From positions 32,001 through 96,000 of IMG/VR virus record IMGVR_UViG_3300001598_000034: DNA of 64,000 nucleotides. One strand, written 5' to 3'. Made by a program: the position numbers and the translations under genes. Positions within the stretch are counted from its first letter, which is position 1; every line of letters starts with the position of its first letter. The DNA is from a virus. Lineage: Duplodnaviria; Caudoviricetes. Below the pieces are notes generated by a model, which was not told the DNA's origin, did not search any database, and saw nothing but the letters and a program-made list of their open reading frames with translations. Of the stretch, positions 2,742-55,485 are shown piece after piece.

Positions 2742-3449
2742 TTATGCCTTTCTAAATACAAATCTACCCGTTTCAGGATCCAATACAAACCTCCCAGATT
2801 TAGGGGCTGACTCTTCTTTTACTGCCACTACCTCTTCTCTAGCATTCTCTTCCTCAATGGCGTCAAGCTCATTAAGTTCGCTAGCAGTAGGTTCCTCATC
2901 GTCTTTTTCTTTATCATCGGCATCTAGAAAGTGCTCGCCTTCAAGTAAAGAATTAATACGCTCTTCAAAATCCGCATCATCAAACTTTACTCTATCAGTA
3001 GTTTTTTTAGGGGCTTCAATTTCTTTTTTAGCATGCACCGCCAAATATTCACGAGCAGCATCGATTTCTCCATCTGGACAATTCATCCACATAATATTAC
3101 CATTATAAATAGGCACACCCTTTTGATATTGAGTATTACCATTAACAGTAATCTCGCGGTATGCTTGAACATTACCATTATTATTAGTAACTTTCATAAC
3201 AGATTCTGCACGTTCAACACGGTCCTCAGGAACCTCTTTTTCAACAGCTTCATCAATGCTCTTCTTCAATTGAGCAAAGTCTTTACGCATTTGCTCTCTA
3301 GCATCCGCTATCTTAATATTGATCTCATCCTGTACACTTTGGAATTCTTTAAACATATGATCCAAAGCTAATACAATATTCCCGGGGTTAGACTCAAACT
3401 TTTCAAAATTAGGTAACATCTTATTTCTCCTTTTCATTAAATACTTCAA
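2742..3449 (-). CDS. Hypothetical acidic coiled-coil protein (start probably MLPNF at 3419)
   Basis: ORF tightly packed in operon; AAGGAG RBS before 3419. Confidence 0.6.
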   Translation of the reverse strand: MKYLMKRRNKMLPNFEKFESNPGNIVLALDHMFKEFQSVQDEINIKIADAREQMRKDFAQLKKSIDEAVEKEVPEDRVERAESVMKVTNNNGNVQAYREITVNGNTQYQKGVPIYNGNIMWMNCPDGEIDAAREYLAVHAKKEIEAPKKTTDRVKFDDADFEERINSLLEGEHFLDADDKEKDDEEPTASELNELDAIEEENAREEVVAVKEESAPKSGRFVLDPETGRFVFRKA

Positions 3450-4272: not shown

Positions 4273-4565
4273 ATAAGAATTCTCCTCTTTCTAGATTTCT
4301 TTGATTCAGGAATTTTATTCATCAAGATTAATTGTAATGCTTCAAGGGATTCAACATTATTTCTCCTAATGTTTTCATTAACAGTATGTAAATAGTACAT
4401 TCCATAATCGAGGAGGTCATCCTTTGGAAAGTCCTTATCTAATAGTTCTTCTAAGGTATTAGCCTCAAATAAAGATTTAATATTATTATCGTTCTTATCT
4501 AAATACACATTAGGTAAAGACTTGACACCAGCAAGTAAGTCTAATTCAGTATTATCGTTTTGCAT
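4269..4565 (-). CDS. Hypothetical protein
   Basis: 98 aa ORF with AAGGAG RBS. Confidence 0.6.
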   Translation of the reverse strand: MQNDNTELDLLAGVKSLPNVYLDKNDNNIKSLFEANTLEELLDKDFPKDDLLDYGMYYLHTVNENIRRNNVESLEALQLILMNKIPESKKSRKRRILI

Positions 4566-4612
4566 CTACATAATGTTCTCCTTTTTACTAAAAACGAAAA
4601 TTTTAAAAACCT

Positions 4613-4705
4613 TCGCCCTATGAATATTAAAATATACTATTCTTGCCGAAGACGCAATGATCTCCTCAAAGGCAGTAATAATATATTTTAATATTCATAG
4701 GGCGA
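4613..4705. repeat. Perfect 24-bp inverted repeat (IR1), putative RNA processing stem
   Basis: tcgccctatgaatattaaaatata (4613-4636) / tatattttaatattcatagggcga (4682-4705). Confidence 0.9.
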
Positions 4706-4809
4706 TTAAATAACTTGATCAGCTGTTTTTGTTTTACGTTTTTTATTTATATGTTAAATATCTCTTAGCTGACCTATTTAAGTCGCCCTATGTAGTGACT
4801 AAGGGAGCT

Positions 4810-4885
4810 GATTAGCAGCCATTAGTCTGTGTACGTACAGACTAACGGGTCAGATTAGCAGCCCTTAGTCTGTGCACGTACAGAC
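4810..4885. repeat. 33-nt direct duplication of the Ubl gene 3' end (2 mismatches)
   Basis: gattagcagccattagtctgtgtacgtacagac (4810-4842) vs gattagcagcccttagtctgtgcacgtacagac (4853-4885). Confidence 0.9.
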
Positions 4886-5100
4886 AAGTTTGCACTGTAT
4901 ACATGCATACCATTTGCATCCACGCCATCATCACTCCAAGAGGAAATGCGTGCGTTAGTGGGGAGGTTAGGAACTTGAGCACGAACTGCCTCAATGCAGT
5001 CTTCATCACTGAGAACTTCATCAGCAGTCATGAAGGGGAACTCAAAATCTCCATATCCAGCCACACGAATAATCTTCTTAATCATTTCATTTTGTTGCAT
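4855..5100 (-). CDS. Prokaryotic ubiquitin-like protein (PRTRC protein C / Prok_Ub-like)
   Basis: 81 aa; VPNLPTNA and C-terminal QTKG-C resemble the YPELTTA...GTKG pattern of PRTRC-C; first gene of the E2/JAB operon; AAGGAG RBS. Confidence 0.7.
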   Translation of the reverse strand: MQQNEMIKKIIRVAGYGDFEFPFMTADEVLSDEDCIEAVRAQVPNLPTNARISSWSDDGVDANGMHVYSANLSVRAQTKGC

Positions 5101-5159
5101 AGTAGTAATCTCCTTAAAATTTTAAATAGTTTTTGGTTGTACTTTAACTGCCAGCTTGC

Positions 5160-5260
5160 ATACTATTCGTGATTAATATAACTCGATAACGATCTCTTAA
5201 TCTCCGAATCTCACTTTCAGGCGTAATTATCGCCGATACTTTCACGACAGTTTCGTATAT
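5160..5260 (-). ncRNA. Putative structured RNA module in operon leader
   Basis: Minus-strand pairings acugucguga/ucacga-a-uagu and cgauaau/guuaucg, with G-U wobbles only on the minus strand. Confidence 0.4.
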
Positions 5261-5310
5261 ACTATATTTCGGCTCCACTCAAAATATAGTTCTATAGATG
5301 AACCATTATC

Positions 5311-5517
5311 TATAGATATAATATTCTTTGTAACCGCGATCATCTCCCGAGATGTACTGGACGGTTCCTGGCAATGATCATTCGAGGCGCTGCCGGTACC
5401 GGCGGGCGACACTCTTCATACGGGCGTATGCTCTAAGCATACGCCATGAAATAGAAAGAAAGAGAATTCCCTTTCATTTTTTAAATTAAAGGTCTTACAA
5501 AGAATATTATATCTATA
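5311..5517. ncRNA. Putative ncRNA module closed by perfect 23-bp inverted repeat (IR2), GC-rich multi-stem interior
   Basis: Arms 5311-5333 / 5495-5517; internal stems ggcgtatgct/agcatacgcc, gccg-gtac-cggc, gatcat/atgatc, catctc/gagatg. Confidence 0.6.
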
Positions 5518-5558
5518 TACAATGTATATATTTATTTACAATGGATATGCATAAATAT

Positions 5559-5685
5559 AATAACAAGTATAGGTAGTGCTTTTAGGAGGATTTTAAGTTA
5601 TTTATCGAAAGGAGGTGTTATTTTATATGCATCAAAGGAGGTGTGATGTTTTAAAAGAGACAAGCACCAACCTATACTTGTTATT
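5559..5685 (-). ncRNA. Putative ncRNA module closed by perfect 16-bp inverted repeat (IR3), carrying three anti-SD-like motifs
   Basis: Arms 5559-5574 / 5670-5685; plus-strand taggagga 5583-5590, aaaggaggtgt 5608-5618 and 5634-5644. Confidence 0.55.
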
Positions 5686-5691
5686 CGAGCT

Positions 5692-5993
5692 AATAGATAT
5701 TTAAATATGCTAACTAACAAAAATTTTGTGAAGTCTATTTGAACAAAAATCATAAAATGTCGGTAGCCTCTCTGTGGATTATTGGAATTCGTCTATGTGC
5801 AGGATCGGATAACGGTCAAGATACAAGTATAACAGGATCTTGCCGATTATCAGATCCTTGCATCTATGAGACGTTTCCAATACTCCACAGGAGGGCGTAC
5901 GAATTTTGTGATGTTTGTGCAAATTAAAAGTTGGAAGAGGAAGAACTCTTCCTCCATATGATAACTCTTAGTTAGCATATTTAAATATCTATT
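5692..5993. ncRNA. Putative ncRNA module closed by perfect 26-bp inverted repeat (IR4), enclosing a ~185-nt imperfect rod hairpin
   Basis: Arms 5692-5717 / 5968-5993; interior 5738-5924 self-complementary (ctgtgga/tccacag, tattggaa/ttccaata, ggatc/gatcc, caagat/atcttg). Confidence 0.6.
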
Positions 5994-6009
5994 GTAAAAA
6001 AGGAGGGAC

Positions 6010-6041
6010 TTCTATACCGAGCTTTTCAGCACGGTATAGAA
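6010..6041. repeat. Hairpin ttctataccg-N12-cggtatagaa
   Basis: 10-bp perfect stem just downstream of the minus-strand promoter at 6071-6107. Confidence 0.7.
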
Positions 6042-6070
6042 GGTAGGAAGAAAAAATCTAAAGCATCCTA

Positions 6071-6107
6071 CATAATACTTATACCATTTTTTACTCAATT
6101 TTTTCGA
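6071..6107 (-). promoter_or_regulatory. Class B phage promoter
   Basis: TCGAAAAAAT-N12-GGTATAAGTATTATG; same 37-nt layout as 6183-6219 and 50077-50113. Confidence 0.7.
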
Positions 6108-6182
6108 CTACAAAATTGGTATTAAATAGCATAAGTATTCAGCTCCCGTAAACCACTCATTGGAACATACTAAATATCTCCG

Positions 6183-6219
6183 CATAATACTTATACCATT
6201 TTATACTATATTTTTTTGA
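6183..6219 (-). promoter_or_regulatory. Class B phage promoter
   Basis: TCAAAAAAAT-N12-GGTATAAGTATTATG. Confidence 0.7.
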
Positions 6220-6229
6220 TCTAAAAAAC

Positions 6230-6240
6230 AGGTATAATAT
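6230..6240 (+). promoter_or_regulatory. Class A phage promoter (AGGTATAATAT)
   Basis: Exact 11-mer recurring in intergenic regions, co-oriented with downstream genes. Confidence 0.75.
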
Positions 6241-6275
6241 CAACTAGAAAATACTATATTAGGAAGGAGTCTTTT

Positions 6276-7031
6276 ATGACTACAGATAAAAACGATAAAG
6301 TATCTATTGGAGAAAAAGTTAAAACAAAGCATTCTATTCTAACTTATAATCCAGATACAAATTCTAATACCTTTCTAGACTATACCGAAAAGACCTTACA
6401 TACAAACTATGATAAGCTATATGAAATCAAAACAAAGAGAGGCTATAGCATAAAGGTAACAAATGACCATAGCTTAATAACTAATGGTTCTGAAGACTTT
6501 TTTGAAAAGGTGTCTCCAGATAAAGCTCTTGGTAAGTTTGTTCCAGTTCTGTATAGTTTAAAATGTGGATTTAAAAAGTACAAAACAGCAAAAGACTTAA
6601 TCAATGATAAGCATACAATAGAATTAACTGCAGAATTATTAAAGTATGATGATATGACTATATGCGCAATAATATCCTTATTGTCTGTACCAGATAAAGA
6701 TGATGAAAAGTTAATGCATATTAGATACTTTAATAAACTAGAAAAATACATTATTCTTTTACTACTTGCAAGGTTATCTTATTTTGTAGAGAAAATAACA
6801 GATGAAGAAATCTTAGCAACACTTTATAAAGGAAAACAAATACCAGAAAATAATAAACTAGTAGATGCAGAAGAAGTAGTTAACGACAATCCTGCTAATC
6901 CATACTTATCACTTCCTTACTCCTGGGATGAAATAATAGAAGTGAATGAAGTAGAGAGAGAAGAGATTACCTATGATTTCTCAGTGCCGCGATATCCATT
7001 ATTTATGGCGAATGGAATCATAGTATTTGAT
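6276..7031 (+). mobile_element. Intein fragment (putative IntC, 252 aa) lacking block A, ending VFD before +1 Thr
   Basis: Block B LYEIKTKRGYSIKVTNDH; block F/G TYDFSVPRYPLFMANGIIVFD/T. Confidence 0.8.
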
Positions 7032-8984
7032 ACAGTAATGGTTCATACACCTGTATCAGCAGAAGCCAGACAAGAAGCATTAGACAAGATGCTTCCTAGC
7101 AAAAACTTATTCCATCCACGCACAATGGCGCCTATACTAATGCCACGTCAGGAACATATCTTCGGTTTTTATCAAGCATCAAAAGATATTCCAGAGTTAA
7201 GAAAGAGCAATGTTAAAGCAGAATCCGTTATGGATTTGGATAAACTTCTTCAAGATATTAAAATGGGAAAAGTAAAACCAGATATGCCTGTAAGATATCA
7301 AGGGCAATTAACAACAGCAGGAATTGCAATAGCTATAGGTAATTTGCCACCGATGCTTAGAGACTACAATATGGTATGGGATAAAAAGAATATTACAAGA
7401 GTTATGGGAATGTTGGCAAAGCAAGAACCAACTAAATACCAATTTGTAGTAGATCTTTTTAAAGAGCTAGGTGGTTTATATGCTTATAAATTAGGATCAA
7501 CTTTCAAACTATCAGATTTTGATTTACAAAAGTTGAAAAAAATGCGCGATGCGTATTTCTCTAAAACAGACAAAGCTTTAGCAAAGATTGATAATAGCAA
7601 TTTATCTAAACAAGAGAAAGAACAGCGCATTGGTGAAGAACTACGTAAAGCACAAGCATTTGCCTCCAATTTAATGGAACAGCAAACAAATAATACTTTC
7701 AATAGACTTTATGTATCCGGAGCAAAAGGAAGTGGAGGACAGATAACACAGATTTTATCTAGTCCTACAGTAGTAGCAGACCCTAAAAACAGATTGATCC
7801 CTTCTCTTATTCACCATTCATATTTAGAAGGACTAAGCCCTGCAGACTATTTTACATCAAGTTACGGTACACGTAAAGGTAGTATTGCAGCTAAATTATT
7901 TGTAGCACCTGCAGGAGCTCTTTCCAAAGAAATAATGGGAAATACTCTAGAAGTAGTAGTATCATGTAAAGAATGTGGTACTGGTAGAGGGTTAAAGAGA
8001 GACATAGATGATAAAGAAAATGTTCTCTATAGACTAGAGGCAGGAACAAATAAATTCATAGATCCAAATTATTATGAACAGTTAAAAAGAAAAGGAATCA
8101 GAGAAGTAACCGTTCGTAGCCCTGCAACATGTGAAGCAAGAGAAGGTGTTTGCCAACATTGTTTCGGTTTTGATGAAAAGATGCAATTCCCAGAAATAGG
8201 CGAAAATGTCGGAGTAATGGCGTCCCAAGCAGTATCCGAAGTAATTTCTCAGAATACCATTTCTTCTAAGCATACAGCAGGAACTGCAGCAGAAGATAAC
8301 TATGGATTTAATGAAGTTAAAGCTTTCTATAATATGTCTTCTAAGTTCTCTGGAGCAGCTGTTATTTCTGAGGTATCTGGTAAAGTATCTAAGATTGAGC
8401 AGTCAGCAACTGGAGGTATGAATGTATTTATAGACAAAAAGAAATACTTCGTACCCCCTGGAAGAAGGGTTACAGTTGTCTTGGGTCAGGATATTAAAGC
8501 TGGAGATCCTATTTCAAATGGAATTATGCCATTTAGCAAAATAGTTCCTCACAAAGGTATAGAACAAGGTAGGCAACTCTTTATTGAAGCAGCTAACGAT
8601 ATTTATAATAAAGCTGGTGCACATACAATAAAGAAGAACCTAGAAACAATTTCTCGTGGACTTATTAACTATGTAGAGATAACAGACCCAGGAGATTTTG
8701 ATGAGTATGCAGAAGGAGATATTGTGGATTACAATAAGCTCATGGGAGATCTGCGTATGCACCCTGGTAAAAAGAAACCAGTATATCACCCAATCCAAAG
8801 TGGCACAAATAAATCCCCAACATTTAAAAACGACTGGTTAGATAACTTTGGCTTTAAGTTCTTAAAACAAAAACTTATTGACAACGCAGCAACGTTCTCT
8901 AAATCTCCGAAGAAACAATATAATCCAATCGCACCCTATGCACGCGGAGTTGGATTCGGAAAAGGTGAAAACGGAAAATACTAA
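6276..8984 (+). CDS. rpoC: DNA-directed RNA polymerase beta' subunit, C-terminal part, with N-terminal split-intein fragment
   Basis: TVMVHTPVSAEARQEA (=QMAVHVPLS after NADFDGD), SGAKGS, SYLEGL, bridge helix YGTRKG, Zn site CGT...RSPATC...CQHCFG, GENVGVMASQAVSE, trigger loop KHTAG. Confidence 0.92.
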   Translation: MTTDKNDKVSIGEKVKTKHSILTYNPDTNSNTFLDYTEKTLHTNYDKLYEIKTKRGYSIKVTNDHSLITNGSEDFFEKVSPDKALGKFVPVLYSLKCGFKKYKTAKDLINDKHTIELTAELLKYDDMTICAIISLLSVPDKDDEKLMHIRYFNKLEKYIILLLLARLSYFVEKITDEEILATLYKGKQIPENNKLVDAEEVVNDNPANPYLSLPYSWDEIIEVNEVEREEITYDFSVPRYPLFMANGIIVFDTVMVHTPVSAEARQEALDKMLPSKNLFHPRTMAPILMPRQEHIFGFYQASKDIPELRKSNVKAESVMDLDKLLQDIKMGKVKPDMPVRYQGQLTTAGIAIAIGNLPPMLRDYNMVWDKKNITRVMGMLAKQEPTKYQFVVDLFKELGGLYAYKLGSTFKLSDFDLQKLKKMRDAYFSKTDKALAKIDNSNLSKQEKEQRIGEELRKAQAFASNLMEQQTNNTFNRLYVSGAKGSGGQITQILSSPTVVADPKNRLIPSLIHHSYLEGLSPADYFTSSYGTRKGSIAAKLFVAPAGALSKEIMGNTLEVVVSCKECGTGRGLKRDIDDKENVLYRLEAGTNKFIDPNYYEQLKRKGIREVTVRSPATCEAREGVCQHCFGFDEKMQFPEIGENVGVMASQAVSEVISQNTISSKHTAGTAAEDNYGFNEVKAFYNMSSKFSGAAVISEVSGKVSKIEQSATGGMNVFIDKKKYFVPPGRRVTVVLGQDIKAGDPISNGIMPFSKIVPHKGIEQGRQLFIEAANDIYNKAGAHTIKKNLETISRGLINYVEITDPGDFDEYAEGDIVDYNKLMGDLRMHPGKKKPVYHPIQSGTNKSPTFKNDWLDNFGFKFLKQKLIDNAATFSKSPKKQYNPIAPYARGVGFGKGENGKY

Positions 8985-13886: not shown

Positions 13887-16844
13887 ATGTTAGGTAAAAG
13901 ATATTCTCTTGGAAGTGTATTTGAACCAACAGGCGAACCTCTTGTTAAAGTAGCTAACTTTAAAGAACTTGCACAACAAAGCGAAGATATTAAATCTTTT
14001 TTAGCTACCTTTAAACCAGATCCTGGATATATGTATTTGCACGTAATAGCTGTAGGAGCCGGAGAATACTGGGGTAAAAATATCAATAGCGATTATTTCT
14101 TGGAAGATGATTTACTTAATAGGTATAAAACTTTTGAGACAGACGCAAAGGTATTTCGTGAACATGATAATAAACCATATTCCCAGTCATATGGTTATGT
14201 ACCATTTGCTTGGTATAATATGCCAATGCATAGAGTAGAACTTATTTTAGCTATAGACAAGATCAAAGGTAAAGAGTTTGTAGATAGACAAAATGCTGGT
14301 GAGCAGTTATGCGTAAGCATGGGATGTTTCCCAGCAGGAACAGACGTACTACTTGCAGATAATACCTTTAAACATATTGAAGACATAAATCCCGGAGATA
14401 AAGTAATTACGCACACAGGGGAAGAGCATGAAGTAACAACTAAAATGCTTCATGAACATACCGGGAATATGTGCAGAATTAAGGCTAGTGGTCAAACGCA
14501 AGAGCTTATATGCACCGACAATCACCCAATCCTGGTAAGAAGATATACTGGATTATTAGAGGATAGTTATGGAGAATGCCCTGTATGTAATAAAAAGTTT
14601 AATCAGGTTTTAACGCATATAATACGGTCTACAAATAAAGAGCACATTGTTTATAGAAATAATATGTTAGATCATAAGTATTTGTATAAACAATATTGGA
14701 CAGATGCAAAAAATATATTACCAGGTGACTTTATATTAACGCCAATTACAAAAGCAACTTCAGACCATGTAAAAAATATAGACTTAGCAAAAATAATAGG
14801 ATATTTTTTGGCAGAGGGATCTTTTGTAAAAAATAAGAAAAAAGAATATAGAGCTATACAATTTAATTTTCATAAAAATGAGATAAATTTACATCAAGAT
14901 GTTCTTGGAGCACTAACTAATCTATCTCAAAAAATAGCTTCATATCAAATAAGAGAAGAAAAGCATTTAGGTGTTATATCTCTCTATGATGAGCATTTAG
15001 CAACTACTATTAAACGATTTTGTGGAGAATATAGTAAATATAAAGTATTAAACCCAGATGTATACACTTGGACATTAGAAGAAAAGCTATATATTATAGG
15101 TAAATACTTTGATGGAGATGGAACCTTTAATAAAAAGCATAAATCTCTATCAGCAACAACAATATCTAAAAATTTAGCGTATTCAATAGCCAGTTTAGCA
15201 AATACATGTGGAATTTCGACCCGTATTTCATCATATAATGGAAAACATAATATAGAATATACTATAGATATAGATAAAGAAGATACAAAAAAATTAAAGT
15301 GTTTTTGCTCTAAAATACCAGAAAACTATTCATATACTAGAAAATATAAAACAATTAAAAAATCATTTGTAGATGATGGTTTTTTGTGTAAAAGAGTTTA
15401 CTCCATAGAAACTTACTACGTGAATAACTTACCAGTGTATAATCTATCCGTAGAGGGAGACGAGTCATACACAGCAAACAGCATAGCAGTACATAATTGC
15501 AGAGTTAAATTCGACGTATGTTCCCTATGTGGTAACCATGCATCTAAACCACATGAATACTGCGAACATATAAAATACCATAAAGGAGAAATTTTTCCTG
15601 ATGGTAAGCAAGCCTATATGATTAATCCAAATCCTACGTTTTTTGATATTTCAATCGTTCGTAGGCCAGCATGGAAGCCAGCTTTCTGTTTAGCAAAAGT
15701 AGCTTCTACAGATACAGATGTAAATACTATGAGTATCCAGGAAAAGAATGCACTAGCATTTGAGGAACTGGATTCATTGATACCAATGGAAAAGACAGCT
15801 GAAGTCTGGGAAATACCAGAAGATGATGAGCTGTTAGGCGCCAAGGTATTAGCTAAACATTCGTCAGTTCAAAAGGTAGCTCTAGATAAACAAATGCCAG
15901 CTATTTCAGTCCAGGATATAGATGCTGAAATAAGAGATATGCTTCCAGCAATTAATAAACTGGAGCCAGATCTTCCAGCCCCTCTACTTGATGACTTAGC
16001 TAGAAAGTATGAGATAAAAGATATTCTGCATTCCTTTGCTTCAGCAGCTATACCAATGAAACCACAAGAGTTTACACGTATAGTAATTGTTAAGAACAAT
16101 CTTCCATTAGAAGCATTTGGAACAGTAATGACCGGAATATTAGGGTCATTCCATGGTAATGGTAAATCCGGATCTGGCAATACAGAAGTAGCAACGCCAA
16201 ACATCCTTCCAGGAATTTCACGACCAGAAATAATGGAAAAACTAGCACCATTTATCCATGCTCGTTCAGCAATCTTGAAAGATGTGTTATCAAGACTAAA
16301 TAGAATATTTGACACAAAAGAACTACAAAAGCTAGGTCTTAATAAAACAGCAGCGGTGTTATATCAACCAAATCCAGTACTGGATTCTTTAGATTTATCA
16401 CCACGTATGAACTTTGGCTATGTACGTAGAGTTCCAGAATTTCAAGATTCAAATAGAGGTCTTTCTAAAGATACTGTTTTAGTACAAGATCCAATGAATT
16501 TGTCTACTATGCCAGTAGCACTTTCCAGAGAATCATTGGTACAGGAAATTCGTAACCCGTCTATTAGCGACTATTCACGTAATCAACTTTTGGCATTAGG
16601 TGCATTACAAGGAAAAGATTTCTCTGCATTTAAAGATCCTAGAATTATAAATTCTGTAATACATGAACCAGGGTTCTTATCTTATTTAGCACTATTAATA
16701 AACTCTTTCAAAAGTAAAGGAACTAAAGCAGCTTCGCCTTTGGATACTAAGAGCATTCTAAGTAATGTTTCCTTAGAGCACTTAACAAATGCTTACAATC
16801 CTGTACCACGTATAATTTCACAAGAATATTATACAAGATACTAA
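13887..16844 (+). CDS. Prohead maturation protease (HK97/S78-like) with intein and C-terminal extension
   Basis: NxNxDYF, VFREH (His), VSMG (Ser), FFDISIV-x2-PA; located upstream of scaffold and capsid. Confidence 0.8.
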   Translation: MLGKRYSLGSVFEPTGEPLVKVANFKELAQQSEDIKSFLATFKPDPGYMYLHVIAVGAGEYWGKNINSDYFLEDDLLNRYKTFETDAKVFREHDNKPYSQSYGYVPFAWYNMPMHRVELILAIDKIKGKEFVDRQNAGEQLCVSMGCFPAGTDVLLADNTFKHIEDINPGDKVITHTGEEHEVTTKMLHEHTGNMCRIKASGQTQELICTDNHPILVRRYTGLLEDSYGECPVCNKKFNQVLTHIIRSTNKEHIVYRNNMLDHKYLYKQYWTDAKNILPGDFILTPITKATSDHVKNIDLAKIIGYFLAEGSFVKNKKKEYRAIQFNFHKNEINLHQDVLGALTNLSQKIASYQIREEKHLGVISLYDEHLATTIKRFCGEYSKYKVLNPDVYTWTLEEKLYIIGKYFDGDGTFNKKHKSLSATTISKNLAYSIASLANTCGISTRISSYNGKHNIEYTIDIDKEDTKKLKCFCSKIPENYSYTRKYKTIKKSFVDDGFLCKRVYSIETYYVNNLPVYNLSVEGDESYTANSIAVHNCRVKFDVCSLCGNHASKPHEYCEHIKYHKGEIFPDGKQAYMINPNPTFFDISIVRRPAWKPAFCLAKVASTDTDVNTMSIQEKNALAFEELDSLIPMEKTAEVWEIPEDDELLGAKVLAKHSSVQKVALDKQMPAISVQDIDAEIRDMLPAINKLEPDLPAPLLDDLARKYEIKDILHSFASAAIPMKPQEFTRIVIVKNNLPLEAFGTVMTGILGSFHGNGKSGSGNTEVATPNILPGISRPEIMEKLAPFIHARSAILKDVLSRLNRIFDTKELQKLGLNKTAAVLYQPNPVLDSLDLSPRMNFGYVRRVPEFQDSNRGLSKDTVLVQDPMNLSTMPVALSRESLVQEIRNPSISDYSRNQLLALGALQGKDFSAFKDPRIINSVIHEPGFLSYLALLINSFKSKGTKAASPLDTKSILSNVSLEHLTNAYNPVPRIISQEYYTRY
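14325..15497 (+). mobile_element. Intein (391 aa) with LAGLIDADG endonuclease
   Basis: CFPAGTDVLLAD (block A), CTDNHP (B), IIGYFLAEGS and IIGKYFDGDG (C/E), VYNLSVEGDESYTANSIAVHN/C (F/G). Confidence 0.95.
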
Positions 16845-18283: not shown

Positions 18284-18697
18284 ATGCTTAATATTTTGAG
18301 CGGTTACCAAACAGCTAACATTAAGTCTTTCCCAGCTGGTGAAGCACTTAACGAAGGCGAGTGGGTAGAATTTGGAAATGACGGTAAAGTAAAGAAAGTT
18401 ACTGGAGTATACACCGGAGCAAAAGGCGTTTTCCCTGTGTATGCAGGTAATGTTAAATTCTATGATACCAAGTCATTGAATGAAGTAGACGTTGTTACTG
18501 CTAAAAGTGGTATTTTGGAATGTGATAACGTAGAAGATGTTACTATTAAAGCAGGCGATGCAGTTTATGTAAAAGATGGTAAGTTGACCAACGCTGCTAA
18601 CGCTTCTGGTGGTAAAGTTATTGGTTATGCTATTGAGGATGCTAATCCCAATGACATTCATAGCCAATTTACTGTAGTTAAGTTTGCTTTAGCATAA
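18284..18697 (+). CDS. Putative head decoration/cement protein
   Basis: 137 aa beta-rich (IKAGDAVYV, VIGYAIEDA), directly before the major capsid gene. Confidence 0.65.
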   Translation: MLNILSGYQTANIKSFPAGEALNEGEWVEFGNDGKVKKVTGVYTGAKGVFPVYAGNVKFYDTKSLNEVDVVTAKSGILECDNVEDVTIKAGDAVYVKDGKLTNAANASGGKVIGYAIEDANPNDIHSQFTVVKFALA

Positions 18698-18717
18698 TAA
18701 GGATGGTGAATATATAA

Positions 18718-19902
18718 ATGGCAATTATTGAAGATTCCGCAAAGGCTAGCATGCTTAATTCAGCTTTTGTTCAACAAGTAAGTACCGACGCTGGTTGTGA
18801 AAAGATGGCTGGTGTTGCCACCGATTTCTGCCGTGTTAAGATTCGTGAAGGCTCTTTCTGCCGTAAAATTCTTCCTCCGAAGCAAATCACTTTTGCTGAG
18901 TTGGATCAAGCTATAGACAGTGATAGCCCAATGCGTATTATCCATAAGGATAAAGTTTCTGAAGCTTACCCCGTAACTTTCCGTGAGCAAGCTCAACAGA
19001 GATATTACATCGGTAATAAGTTCCAAGTATTCTACGAGAACATTCAATCTGAAGAGTTCACAAAGGTTACCGAGGAATTGCAAACCTACCGTGTGCCCAT
19101 TAAACAAATCATCGAAGAGAATTACCTCAAGGATATCCAAAAGGCAGAGGACGTTAAGTTCTTGAATACCATGAATGCTATTTTGGTTAAGAAAGAGGCA
19201 GAGAAAGTAGGCAGCTCTATTTTCAAGAGCAATGATAATAAATTCAGTCCTGCAATTTTGGCAGAAGGATTGAAGCTTCTCGTTCGTAAGGAATTACCCT
19301 TGGGAACCATTCTTATTAACGAAGAAGATTGGATGAGCTTGCTTGAATTGCAACAGGGTGCAGCTGGTTCTGCTGTTATGGAAGATATCATTCATAATGG
19401 TTACAGCTATACCAAGTTGTTGGGTTGCAACTTCGTTCGTACAATCAAAGGCGACGTAGTTAAACCTGGTCGTATCTATATTTTCAGTACTCCTGAGTAC
19501 TTGGGTGTATTTGATGTATTGGAAGACGTAAAAGCTTACATGAAGACTGAAGCTAATAAGTTCTCCTTCCATTTGTGGGAGACCATTGGTATCGCTATCG
19601 GCAACGATAATGGCGTAGCAATGATTCAGTTAGCTTCTAATGATCCTTTGGTTCCTGAAGGTGTTGTAGTTGAAAAGACCAAGATGACTACTTCTGTTGA
19701 TGGGGTATACACTGTTACCTTGGGTACCAAAGTAGCTGTAAAAGCTTATACAGTTGATAACGGAGTAGATGTAGCTGTTAGTCCTGCAGTTGATGCAGGT
19801 GGCGACGTTACCGTAGCTAAATTGGCAGCTGGCGAGCACACTATTGTGTTCAAGGGAGCTAATGGAGATACCGTAGCAACTACTGTAACTGTTGGCGCAT
19901 AA
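18718..19902 (+). CDS. Major capsid protein with C-terminal Ig-like domain
   Basis: Position after protease/scaffold/decoration, highly expressed codon bias, HK97-like size plus ~85 aa Val/Thr-rich tail (AAGEHTIVF). Confidence 0.8.
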   Translation: MAIIEDSAKASMLNSAFVQQVSTDAGCEKMAGVATDFCRVKIREGSFCRKILPPKQITFAELDQAIDSDSPMRIIHKDKVSEAYPVTFREQAQQRYYIGNKFQVFYENIQSEEFTKVTEELQTYRVPIKQIIEENYLKDIQKAEDVKFLNTMNAILVKKEAEKVGSSIFKSNDNKFSPAILAEGLKLLVRKELPLGTILINEEDWMSLLELQQGAAGSAVMEDIIHNGYSYTKLLGCNFVRTIKGDVVKPGRIYIFSTPEYLGVFDVLEDVKAYMKTEANKFSFHLWETIGIAIGNDNGVAMIQLASNDPLVPEGVVVEKTKMTTSVDGVYTVTLGTKVAVKAYTVDNGVDVAVSPAVDAGGDVTVAKLAAGEHTIVFKGANGDTVATTVTVGA

Positions 19903-23095: not shown

Positions 23096-23974
23096 ATGCA
23101 AGAAAAAAACTCAGGATTAGGGGGAAAGATTTGGCATGGAGGAATGGCTTATCTAGGCGTATCTAACCTACCTAATTCTATTTCTGAAAGCAATAAGATA
23201 AAACCCGTATATACCAAGCAAGATCTGCATGACCTTAAAAAAGTAGCTTTTTTAAAAACTATTTCCAATATAGGAAATAGTGACCTAGTAAGTAGATTAG
23301 GATCTTTAAAGGCATGGGGAGGGGCAACTATTGCCTCTAGTCTATCAGGTAAATTTAAAGAATCTAGGGATAATAATTTTTTGCAGTATAAGGCAATGCG
23401 TCAAGCCCAAAACAGACAAAATAGTATTCAACAAATGCACAAAGTAGCTTCTGCTATTCCCAATGTATGGAAATATTATATTAATGACGCAAGAAATTCA
23501 ATTTTAAGTAGTCAATATGAGACCTTTAACCAAATGCAAAAACAAGGAGTATTTGATTATAGTCTAAAAGAAGCCTCGGTATTAACCCCTGTCATAAATG
23601 GTGCTTCACGAGCATTAACACCAGTAAAGAATACCATAGCATCAGGAATAAGTAAGGTTAAATCATTTACTGATAATTTGGGAGAAAAGGCCTTTGATAT
23701 CAAAAAGAAAATACGCTCAAAAGTTGGCCCAGACGCAAAAACAGGTTATTATAGAGATAACCCCTTAAAAAAAGGGGATATACCAAAACCATATTATGAT
23801 AAAAAAATCTACACCACACCTAAAAAAGAAGATTCCTTTATTAGAGCAGCTAAAGGAATCGCAGGATTAACATTTGCAGCTGATACACTAATTGAAGCAA
23901 ATAATACAAGAAAAAATTTCCAATATGCAGCGCCAAAAGTTAAAATGCCCCCAATAAAATATCAACAACAATAA
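23096..23974 (+). CDS. Putative internal head protein (basic)
   Basis: KKVAF, HKVAS, LKEAS motifs. Confidence 0.5.
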   Translation: MQEKNSGLGGKIWHGGMAYLGVSNLPNSISESNKIKPVYTKQDLHDLKKVAFLKTISNIGNSDLVSRLGSLKAWGGATIASSLSGKFKESRDNNFLQYKAMRQAQNRQNSIQQMHKVASAIPNVWKYYINDARNSILSSQYETFNQMQKQGVFDYSLKEASVLTPVINGASRALTPVKNTIASGISKVKSFTDNLGEKAFDIKKKIRSKVGPDAKTGYYRDNPLKKGDIPKPYYDKKIYTTPKKEDSFIRAAKGIAGLTFAADTLIEANNTRKNFQYAAPKVKMPPIKYQQQ

Positions 23975-23985
23975 AGGTAACACAC

Positions 23986-24450
23986 ATGCCAGCTAAAATA
24001 AAAGTTTATTATGATAGAAACTGCACACAGGAATTAGCAAGAGACCAAAAAACTAATGCATTTTTATATACTTTTTTTAAACAAAAAGAAGATGGAACTA
24101 TACAAGAAGCTGTAGATGGAATACGTGGCGAAGCTGGTAGATGCATATTATATTTAAAAAATGTGGGAACAAGAGCAGCTTTACATCCTCAAATAACCTT
24201 TATATCAACAAACAATCAAGAAATTATCAATAAAAAAGTATACACATGTAAAGATATACCTGTAGATCAAGTAGAAGAACTACAGGTAGACTTTACTATA
24301 AAGGCATGGACAGCAGCACAAATAAGCGAGAATTATTTTTCTTTAGAATATTATTCGCTTCCAGACACTGTATCATATACAAATCCGTATAATTATTATG
24401 CAGAAATAGGTGAAGAAACAAATACCTATGTTACAATAGACGGAGTTTAA
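23986..24450 (+). CDS. Putative virion protein, Ig-like beta sandwich
   Basis: LYLKNVG motif, paralogous to the N-terminus of the next ORF (IYIKNCG). Confidence 0.5.
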   Translation: MPAKIKVYYDRNCTQELARDQKTNAFLYTFFKQKEDGTIQEAVDGIRGEAGRCILYLKNVGTRAALHPQITFISTNNQEIINKKVYTCKDIPVDQVEELQVDFTIKAWTAAQISENYFSLEYYSLPDTVSYTNPYNYYAEIGEETNTYVTIDGV

Positions 24451-33739: not shown

Positions 33740-35020
33740 ATGATTAATATAGAATATCTAGAAAAAATTGCATATGAAAAATACGCGGCAAATGTACTAA
33801 CGAGTATTATTAAAAATGTCGGAAAACCAATAGCAGGAGCATTAGCAAGGGTTCCTGTTGCAATGTCCAATAGCGCCGCAGCAGGGTATCTTCAAGAAGG
33901 TGCTAGGTTTGGAGCGGGGCTACAATTAGCTGGACTTGGTATGCAAGGTAAACTCATGCCATCAATAAAAAATAGGGTGTCAAAGTTACTTTCTAGCATT
34001 GGAATAGTTAAGAAGCCCGGATTAGGTGATATTAAAAATACTTCAATAAGCATACCGGCACAATCTAGTAGAAAATTGCCCCAAAATAAGCCAAGGATTT
34101 ATTCTCCACAAACGTACAAAAAATTTACTTCGCCTGCCTTCTATCAAGTTTCTTCTAATAAAACCACAAAACCAGTTGTTCAAAGAATAGGGGAAAAATT
34201 AGAAAATGTAGGTGGAAATATAACACATACCATGCTAAATGAGGAAAACTTATTTAATAGAGATGCTGCAGAAATAGCAAGAAATGCTGTAAATACTATC
34301 GGTAATAATCTATCTCCAAAAAAGTACAAAATAATAAAGTCAAATGGACTAGTATCTGATAGCTTAACTGGCTCGGAATTAAAATTTACAGGGAAAAAAA
34401 CTAATTATGCAGACCAATATAGAAGAGGACTCCTAGACGATATTAGAGAAGCCGGTTATAGGGCTAATGAAAAACCAGTGCAAATAGCTCGAAATAATGT
34501 AACTAATACAGACCCATTCTTTAGAAAACAGCATCAAGAAGCGCTTAAAGAGCGCCTAAAAGATCTTCAATTTGGTAGAAGGCATGGACTTGCAGTACCA
34601 GTTGGCATTACTGATGGAGACATGGTAGCTTATTATAAATCAATAAAAAGACATGGTTTAGCATCTAGAATATTTGATACAAACTACAATGGTAATAAAC
34701 TTTTTAGTAGTGAAAAAACTAAGAATATACAGAATCAACGTCAAGGAACTTTTAGTAATATTATAAATACTGCTAAAATCAAGGTAGAAGACTTTTTCCA
34801 TGGGAGTAGGGGAAATAGAAATTTTGAATATGCCCTGTATACGCATGACCCAAAAGTATTTTTAAGAGAAAGACACCAAAATAACATTAAACCTCAAATC
34901 AATACTACTTCTCAATGGAAAATGATGCGTCAACCACTAGAACCTAATACTCCCAAAATTCCACGCCAGCAAATAAAGATAAACCCTAATAGAGGAGAGA
35001 TGATGTCGAACACCAATTGA
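33740..35020 (+). CDS. Putative virion-packaged basic protein with MINIEYLEKIA leader
   Basis: Start placed at 33740 rather than 33677 from the shared leader. Confidence 0.6.
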   Translation: MINIEYLEKIAYEKYAANVLTSIIKNVGKPIAGALARVPVAMSNSAAAGYLQEGARFGAGLQLAGLGMQGKLMPSIKNRVSKLLSSIGIVKKPGLGDIKNTSISIPAQSSRKLPQNKPRIYSPQTYKKFTSPAFYQVSSNKTTKPVVQRIGEKLENVGGNITHTMLNEENLFNRDAAEIARNAVNTIGNNLSPKKYKIIKSNGLVSDSLTGSELKFTGKKTNYADQYRRGLLDDIREAGYRANEKPVQIARNNVTNTDPFFRKQHQEALKERLKDLQFGRRHGLAVPVGITDGDMVAYYKSIKRHGLASRIFDTNYNGNKLFSSEKTKNIQNQRQGTFSNIINTAKIKVEDFFHGSRGNRNFEYALYTHDPKVFLRERHQNNIKPQINTTSQWKMMRQPLEPNTPKIPRQQIKINPNRGEMMSNTN

Positions 35021-35042
35021 TATTCACATTATTACTAATATA

Positions 35043-35366
35043 ATGATTAATATAGAATATTTAGAAAAAGTCGCTATGACTTCTGAAAAAGAATTAAAGA
35101 AAAAGCGTTTTATGGGATTACCATACAATAATTATATAACAGCTGGAGCTTTAGGTGGCATAAGCACTTATAAAACTAATAAAGCATTACGCTTTATACC
35201 AGGTAAATACAGATATCCTTTGGCAGGAATATCTGGGTCTCTTGGGGCCGCAACAGGTTTTGATTTACAAGAAGCATGGGATCATACAATTAATAACAAG
35301 TTAAATAACATAAAAATATTGGCTGCAGATACAGGTGAGTATTTACTTAATAAGGCAACAAAATGA
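35043..35366 (+). CDS. Putative virion-packaged protein with MINIEYLEKVA leader
   Basis: Shared leader; two Gly-rich hydrophobic stretches. Confidence 0.6.
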   Translation: MINIEYLEKVAMTSEKELKKKRFMGLPYNNYITAGALGGISTYKTNKALRFIPGKYRYPLAGISGSLGAATGFDLQEAWDHTINNKLNNIKILAADTGEYLLNKATK

Positions 35367-50080: not shown

Positions 50081-50113
50081 ATACTTATACCTAATTTTTT
50101 AATATTTTTTTGA
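50077..50113 (-). promoter_or_regulatory. Class B phage promoter
   Basis: TCAAAAAAAT-N12-GGTATAAGTATAATG. Confidence 0.7.
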
Positions 50114-53056: not shown

Positions 53057-53704
53057 TTAAACTCTCGCTTTATAAGGGACACGCACACGCACATGAACCA
53101 ATCTTCGTCCCCATTCCCATGCTTCTGCCCTATTAGGCATTGCAATATCAATAATACGTCCATTAATTGCGTTACCTGTGTCATTCGCTCTGCACCATCC
53201 AATAGTAGGAACATACACTTCAGCCTGCAAAGGAATAACTTCAGGATCTACAGCTAATGTCTTATAGGCAATAGCAGGTGTCCCATCATAAGCAATGCCA
53301 TCACCACTCGCCTCTATAGGATCATGCGTCCAATAAGCAGTAGCCTCTACTAGCATCGTTTTTTCAATAAACTCTCCTGGCATTTTCAAAAATACAGGAT
53401 TGGCGTTCCCCTTTACTTCTTCCCCTGGTACAGCAAATATAGGCTCTTTCTCAAATAATTTGTCTGTATATTTGCGTGCCAGCATTTCAATCTCACTCTG
53501 AGTATGCAATGCAGACAACTCTGCTGCCCGATCAGCAATACGTATTTCACACCGCTTTTCAATCCAAGCATCAAAATCTCTACATATCCCAGCCCAGATA
53601 ACATTACAGAAGAAGATAACGGTTGCTATAACAATACAAATATGTGTAATCATATATCCGGCAATCCAGTATTGATCTTCTTCTAAATGTAATTGTAAAT
53701 TCAT
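53057..53704 (-). CDS. 3D-domain (MltA-type) cell-wall protein with N-terminal TM helix
   Basis: ATAY, AVDPEVIPL, ANDTGNAINGRIIDI, WGRR. Confidence 0.9.
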   Translation of the reverse strand: MNLQLHLEEDQYWIAGYMITHICIVIATVIFFCNVIWAGICRDFDAWIEKRCEIRIADRAAELSALHTQSEIEMLARKYTDKLFEKEPIFAVPGEEVKGNANPVFLKMPGEFIEKTMLVEATAYWTHDPIEASGDGIAYDGTPAIAYKTLAVDPEVIPLQAEVYVPTIGWCRANDTGNAINGRIIDIAMPNRAEAWEWGRRLVHVRVRVPYKARV

Positions 53705-55263: not shown

Positions 55264-55485
55264 CTACAGCTGTATCGCCTGATCATTACATAAATTATTA
55301 TCTTTATCATATACATTATCAACGCACGCAAAGTTTAACGAGTATAGCGCATCCCAATAACACCCGCAGTATTTGCATGCAAATCTATATGTATATGTAT
55401 TATCTCGCAAAAGAGAATCATAACAATCAGCATCTTCTCTTCCACAGAGAGGGCACTTTCCCTTACGCCATTCTTCTTTTTCCAC
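55264..55485 (-). CDS. Zn-ribbon protein (possibly 5'-truncated)
   Basis: GKCPLCG...CKYCG. Confidence 0.5.
   Translation of the reverse strand: MEKEEWRKGKCPLCGREDADCYDSLLRDNTYTYRFACKYCGCYWDALYSLNFACVDNVYDKDNNLCNDQAIQL

Follow-up and report, generated by a model that had tools for sequence, protein, structure and literature searches.

Introduction

In Staphylococcus aureus, the C-rich hairpin loops of RNAIII pair with G-rich Shine-Dalgarno (SD) regions. SD sites are also the targets of RegB, an endoribonuclease of phage T4 that acts on GGAG in these sites and shuts off the translation of a class of mRNAs. Among the bacterial small RNAs, RsaE/RoxS (RF01820) contains C-rich motifs that pair with SD sequences (PMC6158497, PMC4409812), and LhrC contains three redundant CU-rich sites that pair with the SD region of mRNAs and thereby block translation (PMC4132741). 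No published phage example of an anti-SD RNA was found in the literature that we searched.

Here, we analyze an intergenic RNA candidate in the genome of an uncultured gut phage (referred to as G000), the record of which consists of 146,590 bp with a G+C content of 34.8%. The window is the whole stretch of 64,000 nucleotides that was analyzed, corresponding to bases 32001-96000 of this record, and all positions refer to the window unless stated otherwise. An earlier note on this DNA had proposed that an inverted repeat at 5559-5685, here called unit B, specifies a small RNA on the minus strand that displays copies of the anti-SD tail of the 16S rRNA. We compared the locus to the corresponding regions in related phages, to their RNA arrays and to the systems described above.

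Genomic setting of unit B

Unit B (127 bases, 5559-5685) is located in a gene-free stretch of 1,175 bp (5101-6275), which is flanked by a minus-strand gene that starts at position 5100 and by a plus-strand gene for the C-terminal part of the RNA polymerase beta' subunit that starts at position 6276. The polymerase gene begins with an intein splicing domain (6276-7050; Pfam PF14890, 2.2e-12). The approximately 44 homologs to this gene (47-67% identity) all differ little in length (734-905 aa), and PF14890 was identified in most of them. A search for tRNA genes in the region identified none.

In related phages with 44-54% identity in the polymerase gene, the same place is occupied by only about 200 bp and an extra minus-strand gene. 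This gene is conserved, is located between an 82-aa gene and the polymerase gene, and encodes a protein of 129 aa (119-148 aa over loci L010-L018); no vestige of it was found in the G000 window. Its place in G000 is taken by a 1.17-kb non-coding array, which was absent from the relatives taken from IMG/VR and metagenomes and showed no DNA match to GenBank phages. Since the relatives contain the short spacer and the extra gene instead, the 1.17-kb region is private to G000 among the genomes compared. The nearest relatives as judged from beta', P0002 and P0003 (65-67% identity), have contigs that lie outside this comparison, within which no sequence homolog to unit B was detected.

Other repeats were observed elsewhere in the genome. 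A perfect 24-nt inverted repeat, TCGCCCTATGAATATTAAAATATA, surrounds 45 nt between two minus-strand genes (4613-4705), with a predicted folding energy of -50.0 kcal/mol on the minus strand as compared to -42.0 kcal/mol on the plus strand. At genome positions 15039-15496 (L029:140-597), three nested perfect inverted repeats with arms of 19-25 nt are built from iterons of the types GTGTAACA and GTGTAGACA. This design is kept across the clade, with similar regions at 3005-3421 and 79623-80162 in G002 and at 23974-24284 in G005, and the nested repeats may serve as an origin of replication or in the binding of a protein.

Copies of the 16S rRNA tail within the inverted repeat

The two arms of unit B (5559-5574 and 5670-5685) are complementary at 16 out of 16 positions and are separated by 95 nt. 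On the minus strand, seven additional pairs (GGUGCUU/AAGCACU, of which one is G-U) extend the stem beyond a bulge of 1 nt, and the 16 bp + 7 bp of the closing stem enclose a G-poor interior (5582-5661) with three CCUCC motifs. On the plus strand, AGGAGG is present at positions 5584, 5610 and 5636, with a spacing of exactly 26 nt. Two of these hexamers belong to the 11-mer AAAGGAGGTGT at 5608-5618 and 5634-5644, which reads ACACCUCCUUU twice on the minus strand; the third motif on the minus strand is UCCUCCUA at 5590-5583. These are the three copies inside the inverted repeat that the earlier note had listed, and all of them were confirmed from the sequence. With the next C added, the copy of ACACCUCCUUU at 5608-5618 contains 11 nt that are identical to CACCUCCUUUC.

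The two 11-mers are the sole copies of AAAGGAGGTGT in the genome of 146,590 bp, and the exact double 11-mer was recovered from only one other viral contig, where it is located inside a coding repeat. The genome contains 32 copies of AGGAGG on both strands, five of which are clustered on one strand within 423 bp, as compared to an expected number of about 0.05. Three CCTCC per 80 nt are matched by a fraction of 0.0001 of the genome windows, and with 4 G in 80 nt the interior of unit B belongs to the lowest 0.5% of the genome windows.

The three motifs of unit B are situated in a degenerate 26-nt tandem triplication (repeat D4) and thus represent one event that was amplified, rather than three independent events. 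The genome also contains many other long perfect inverted repeats that enclose unrelated interiors. Since unit B is unique to G000 among the genomes compared and is built from a single repeat, it is a real possibility, albeit in our opinion an unlikely one, that its motifs have no specific function: unit B would then act as a spacer or insulator through its structure, or would have arisen recently by a local triplication in a non-coding array that changes fast, with CCUCC as a by-product, e.g., a relic of tandem ribosome-binding sites (RBSs). The perfect stem of 16 + 7 bp and the extreme depletion of G in the interior argue against such an explanation, as do the comparative data presented below.

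Predicted fold and accessibility

The predicted minimum free energy (MFE) of unit B on the minus strand is -29.5 kcal/mol (z -7.69), in a fold where the 80-nt interior is open. The three CCUCC motifs are predicted to be unpaired with probabilities of 0.89-1.00, including 0.89 for the copy of ACACCUCCUUU at 5608-5618 and 0.92 for UCCUCCUA at 5583-5590. The other copy of ACACCUCCUUU (5644-5634) is placed in the loop of a predicted minus-strand hairpin, CAUCA[CACCUCCUU]UGAUG (5630-5648, z -5.5), in agreement with the CAUCA/UGAUG hairpin proposed previously. A fourth motif, CCCUCCUUUUUU, which had been suggested to lie near the start of the transcript, is present on the minus strand at 6007-5996 and is predicted to be single-stranded in the context of the array transcript, with a mean unpaired probability of 0.97. 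The fifth CCUCC, located within the neighboring unit C, is predicted to be paired on the minus strand.

In the fold of the plus strand, the GGAGG motifs are unpaired with probabilities of only 0.32-0.59. The description of the motifs as displayed on the minus strand is supported by this difference and by the units with CUCCUU in a loop in two other lineages, described below. The MFE is lower for the plus strand (-36.6 vs. -29.5 kcal/mol), a comparison that is not decisive because the G-rich strand gains G-U pairs.

Retron-like neighbors and the reverse transcriptase

The earlier note had placed the small RNA on a promoter-driven strand and had not recognized the units around it. Rather than a stand-alone small RNA with a promoter of its own, unit B is the central one of three units arranged as C-B-A, in an array of a kind that is linked to a reverse transcriptase (RT). 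The two neighbors are members of a retron-like family with a common layout on the minus strand, in which a long closing stem is followed by an unpaired G and then A, by a hairpin of 7 bp with an ANUU loop and, beyond a U-rich spacer, by a long internal hairpin. Unit A (5304-5524, minus strand) has arms of 23-30 nt, with G-A behind the 5' arm, and a GC-rich interior; its hairpin, GAAAGGG-AAUU-CUCUUUC, contains a G-U pair that is possible on the minus strand only. Unit C (5692-5993, minus strand) has perfect closing arms of 26 nt, after which come an unpaired G-A and two hairpins, a short one and a long internal one. Three further members of the family were identified at genome positions 18668-18862, 18867-19005 and 19120-19354 (locus L029), and a sixth is located directly after the stop codon of the RT gene, on the RT's own strand (L020:572-733). 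An alignment of the 5' parts of the retron-like units with MAFFT was too poor for a covariance model.

All six retron-like units of G000 have the order arm/G/A or arm/G/G after the 5' arm, whereas the 5' arm of unit B is followed by U, seven more paired bases and then an unpaired G-U. The 7-bp ANUU hairpin, the U-rich spacer and the long internal hairpin are absent from unit B, as well as from the odd units of the relatives described in the next section. With no clear G-A signature, and lacking both the ANUU and the long hairpin, unit B falls outside the retron-like family.

The retron-type RT of G000 (525 aa) is encoded on the minus strand outside the window (G000:C1:115722-117299; L020:742-2319). 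It was identified with RVT_1 (5.6e-14) and PADLOC RT_III-A (6.6e-44) and contains a YADD motif, with a score below the NCBIfam retron cut-offs. One to three RTs were found in each of the relatives tested (5/5). In all of the relatives that were fetched as whole genomes (4/4), one of these RTs, the ortholog, has a retron-like array downstream, which is co-oriented with the RT and has its own copy of the promoter-like motif described below. The arrays of the relatives contain 3-4 units of unrelated sequence and are situated after the RT operon; two arrays in G000 are displaced into the leaders of other operons. The partner proteins in the RT operons of the relatives (206-275 aa and 349-380 aa) showed no match to a Pfam or PADLOC family. 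The leader of the RT operon in G000 (L020:2940-3260, minus strand) is 325 nt from the promoter motif to the first gene and contains AAGGAGAA, followed by a possible 32-codon ORF with a GTG start. The RT-operon leader in G002 and G003 is of like length, about 326 nt.

Odd units in related lineages

The arrays of two related lineages, the G002-type and the G004-type, contain one odd unit each, which is closed by a stem, has an interior of 7-13% G and is without the retron-like signature. These units were identified at 55338-55464 in G002, at 35014-35172 in G003 (G002-type) and at approximately 126396-126524 in G004 (G004-type). No odd unit was found in the arrays of the G005-type. The first element past the 5' arm on the RT-sense strand is in each case a short hairpin with CUCCUU in the loop: UAGCAU[CUCCUU]AUGUUA in the G002-type and UAUAGUAUU[..UUCUCCUUUCU..]AAUGCUAUG in the G004-type. 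The stem of the hairpin persists despite a G-U to A-U change (L071 vs. L069) and likewise despite a compensatory U-A to G-C change together with a U-G to U-A change (L079 vs. L078/L080).

The hairpin CAUCA[CACCUCCUU]UGAUG is likewise the first element of unit B, in a place equivalent to that of the CUCCUU hairpin in the relatives. A sequence alignment of the odd units with unit B was not convincing, and the resemblance is therefore one of shared design and position, not of proven homology. As concerns the motifs of unit B, the fact that two other lineages also have G-poor units that present CUCCUU in a loop, on stems that persist despite base changes, speaks against a lack of specific function, while the G005-type arrays, which manage without an odd unit, are consistent with it.

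A further explanation is that unit B is a working part of the RT system, that is, a template or regulatory unit of which the cDNA, of plus-strand sequence with AGGAGG three times, or the RNA acts together with the retron-type RT, instead of being a regulator in its own right. Such a role is compatible with the location of unit B between two retron-like units that share its closing-stem design, with the presence of the RT gene in the genome, with the location of the relatives' odd unit inside RT-linked arrays and with the unpaired G after the extended stem of unit B. However, the G-A signature is not clear in unit B and is missing from the odd units, neither of them has the ANUU hairpin of 7 bp or a long internal hairpin, and we consider a direct role in the RT system to be very unlikely. 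A DRT2-like never-ending ORF from concatenated cDNA was excluded, as there are stop codons in every frame.

Strand and promoter-like motif

The choice of strand rests on comparative evidence, namely a promoter motif and the polarity of the units. The promoter-like motif TGGTATAAGTAT was found without mismatch at 6075-6086 of the minus strand (P1); it resembles an extended -10 element (TGnTATAAt), with a likely start near GUAG at about 6070. A second copy of the same clade motif is located on the minus strand at 6187-6198 (P2), and a third copy at 50081-50092 brings the number in the window to three, all on the minus strand. The clade form of the motif is (A/T-rich)TGGTATAAGTA(T/A)nnTGTAG. It was identified 8-15 times per genome in G000 and the four fully fetched relatives, almost always in intergenic positions, and in these five genomes an ORF starts on the same strand 60-330 nt downstream of the motif copies. 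Every array of RNA units is preceded by its own copy, and the motif is followed by GUAG, at which in most cases a 5' hairpin begins.

Some of the hairpins after the motif have a U-run and may double as terminators of the upstream gene. P1 and P2 are oriented toward unit B and lie at a divergent junction, which excludes that they terminate a minus-strand gene upstream.

The promoter-like motif is located about 390 nt upstream of unit B, ahead of unit C, and no terminator follows unit B. Between the motif and unit C, there is a leader hairpin with arms of 15 nt (6009-6042), for which a folding energy of -21.6 kcal/mol was predicted on the minus strand. The six retron-like units of G000 share one polarity, which is that of the minus strand and corresponds to the RT-sense strand in the relatives, and the G-U pairs in the conserved hairpins and closing stems are possible only in this orientation. 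From the promoter motif, the common polarity of the neighboring units and these strand-limited G-U pairs, we conclude that transcription of the array C-B-A very probably uses the minus strand. The earlier note had also chosen the minus strand, and its choice is supported by the upstream motif and by the minus polarity of units A and C.

Alternatively, the plus strand may be the functional one, either with a 25-aa peptide gene and a mini-ORF, or as a tandem strong-SD/GGA decoy for the 30S subunit or CsrA. The 25-aa ORF named in the earlier note does exist: MHQRRCDVLKETSTNLYLLFELIDI (MHQRRC..., 5627-5704, plus strand) is an open frame of 25 codons, the ATG of which is placed 11 nt after AGGAGG at 5610-5615 within the perfect SD AAAGGAGGTGT, and an out-of-frame ATG-TTT-TAA is present at 5646. 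A TATAAT at 5557-5562 with a TTTACA 15 nt upstream is also in line with expression of the plus strand. Furthermore, we scanned viral contigs for two copies of CACCTCCTTT within 5-35 nt and obtained 84 contigs, most of them with coding copies; the non-coding examples that were examined represent tandem strong RBSs on the other strand, as is usual for paired 16S-tail 10-mers in the non-coding DNA of other phages.

Several features are nevertheless at odds with a functional plus strand. There is no promoter motif of the clade type on the plus strand upstream of unit B and no plus-strand gene before position 6276. The 25-aa ORF is not membrane-like, and it crosses the 3' repeat arm into the arm of unit C. 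The first SD has no start codon, and the third is only 4 nt from its ATG. No conserved ORF was found on the antisense strand of the relatives' odd units, and the GGAGG motifs are mostly paired in the plus-strand fold. We therefore regard a function of the plus strand as decidedly unlikely. A GGA decoy of the CsrB/RsmZ type is likewise disfavored, as GGAGG is mostly paired and there was no CsrB-type match in Rfam.

The 16S rRNA tail and candidate targets

The sequence GGATCACCTCCTTTCT is the 3' end of 16S rRNA genes in Bacillota and in many other phyla. Thus, CACCUCCUUU is a true copy of the tail, as had been stated, but it is common to many phyla and not specific to Firmicutes as the earlier note had assumed. 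A local alignment of the 5' part of unit B to the 16S 3' ends of seven genomes revealed no significant likeness to 16S rRNA upstream of the tail of 10-11 nt (p 0.06-0.54 vs. shuffled sequences). Unit B as a mini-16S rRNA, or as a copy of the 16S 3' minor domain, was rejected since the likeness stops at the tail.

The identity runs of 10-11 nt allow for an explanation in which the minus-strand RNA, instead of pairing with mRNAs, mimics the 3' end of the 16S rRNA and titrates a protein that recognizes the tail. Such a protein could be a ribosomal protein (bS21 or S1, for example), a factor for initiation or maturation, or an RNase or toxin of the host that attacks the tail. Two exact copies of this length exceed what is needed for pairing with an SD, the motifs are predicted to be exposed, and the loop of the G004-type extends the match to the tail in the 3' direction (CUCCUUUCU). 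Conversely, the lack of significant likeness to the 16S 3' minor domain upstream of the tail, the G002-type loop, in which only CUCCUU is retained, and the lack of a candidate binding protein nearby, with RT-operon partners that match neither Pfam nor PADLOC families, make titration of such a protein quite unlikely.

Duplex predictions for unit B gave no specific mRNA target beyond generic complementarity to SD sequences. The best predicted duplex (-22.7 kcal/mol) involves the start region of the gene at 53057-53704, with p ~0.045 as compared to probes with shuffled flanks; this gene was rejected as evidence of a target, since the duplex is barely better than those of the shuffled-flank probes. 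Nor were the loops of the three lineages matched to the ribosome-binding sites of each phage itself. Among the five genomes (G000 and G002-G005), the SDs of G000 were the weakest, with a mean energy of the duplex with the 16S tail of -7.06 kcal/mol as compared to -8.0 to -9.4 kcal/mol. These weak SDs could fit a broad SD sponge, but only weakly so, as the lower G+C content explains them equally well. G000 is also the genome with the strongest anti-SD unit of the five.

Proposed mode of action

We infer that unit B is a non-coding RNA module on the minus strand, in the middle of a polycistronic C-B-A transcript. The array would start at the conserved phage promoter near 6075-6086, with a second copy at 6187-6198, and the transcript would probably continue into the minus-strand operon beginning at 5100. 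The closing stem of 23 bp would insulate unit B, with processing through cleavage by RNase III as a possibility, and would hold open a G-poor loop of 80 nt with three CCUCC motifs, two of which are contained in the 10-11-nt copies of the 16S 3' tail. The leader of the array would provide a fourth exposed motif. The exposed CCUCC would most likely pair with SD sequences of the GGAGG type in mRNAs. In this way, unit B would act in competition with the 30S subunit and reduce initiation, with the largest effect on messages with a strong SD. The earlier note had suggested a broad masking of strong ribosome-binding sites or, alternatively, the titration of an anti-SD-binding factor.

This explanation as a whole, a module of a minus-strand array that masks SD sites, is put forward tentatively, as we judge it to have somewhat less than an even chance of being correct. 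A generic SD sponge would demand a very high copy number and would also strike the phage's own SD-led genes. Provided that unit B is expressed and has the proposed action, it would represent a phage RNA with copies of the mRNA-docking tail of the ribosome that biases which messages are translated. To our knowledge, phage RNAs are not known to take over a host by such a mechanism, although proteins are, and this would be the first unit of the kind within the retron-like RNA arrays of lytic-type phages. Should the motifs instead have no specific function, the main value of the locus would lie in its context, i.e., the promoter motif, the arrays linked to the RT and the strand that they indicate.

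A broader scenario is that this clade of large gut phages uses a retron-type RT with varied msr-msd-like arrays, including a dedicated mimic of the 16S tail that is amplified to three copies in G000, for a global shut-off of SD-led translation similar to that of RegB, or for protection or imitation of the tail during infection. We hold this scenario to be distinctly improbable; if true, it would tie phage reverse transcription to the control of host translation.

Comparison with known systems

A search of positions 4500-7000 against Rfam with cmscan (E<=10) yielded noise only, and the same search of the relatives' arrays yielded nothing. The LhrC family of Listeria monocytogenes (RF00616) resembles unit B in that several redundant CU-rich sites are located in the loops or single-stranded stretches of one small RNA. 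The LhrC RNAs are free-standing bacterial transcripts with their own promoter and terminator, whereas unit B is a stem-closed unit in a phage array of non-coding RNAs. Also, the LhrC motif is UCCC-like and has defined targets, while the motif of unit B is a copy of 10-11 nt of the 16S tail. Unpaired C-rich motifs are likewise shared with RsaE/RoxS and RNAIII from low-GC Gram-positive bacteria. Those RNAs are conserved bacterial regulators with specific regulons, to which unit B shows no likeness in sequence or by covariance model. Of the traits of C-rich small RNAs that target SD sequences, the multiple exposed C-rich motifs are present in unit B, but a promoter and terminator of its own are absent. 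The proposed masking of SD sites follows the same logic as in RegB, with the difference that RegB is a protein nuclease and unit B an RNA that would act by pairing.

Other repeat-based systems were also compared. A type III antitoxin like ToxI, with nearly identical tandem repeats of about 34-36 nt beside a toxin gene, was rejected, as the 26-nt repeats of unit B are alike in the SD part only, were not called by TRF and have no adjacent gene. A cassette observed in other gut phages (L219, L221, L223, L226, L234, L281, L282, L284) consists of AAAGGAGGTG, 7-8 nt, an ATG-stop mini-ORF, about 25-35 nt, a second AAAGGAGGTG and a gene for a small membrane protein that is holin-like. Tandem-RBS cassettes of this kind (L219, L221, L223, L234 and L284) are similar to unit B in that a non-coding stretch of up to 50 nt holds two exact copies of the 10-mer CACCTCCTTT. 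They lead to a real gene, however, whereas unit B is not followed by such a gene and differs from the cassettes in its spacings.

Finally, unit B has the long closing inverted repeat, the array and the strand in common with the retron msr-msd-like RNAs, as represented by its neighbors A and C, but it shows no clear G-A behind the 5' arm and has neither the ANUU hairpin of 7 bp nor the long internal hairpin. Compared with all of these systems, it is the setting that is novel here: a stem-closed unit with exact copies of the 16S tail inside RT-linked RNA arrays.
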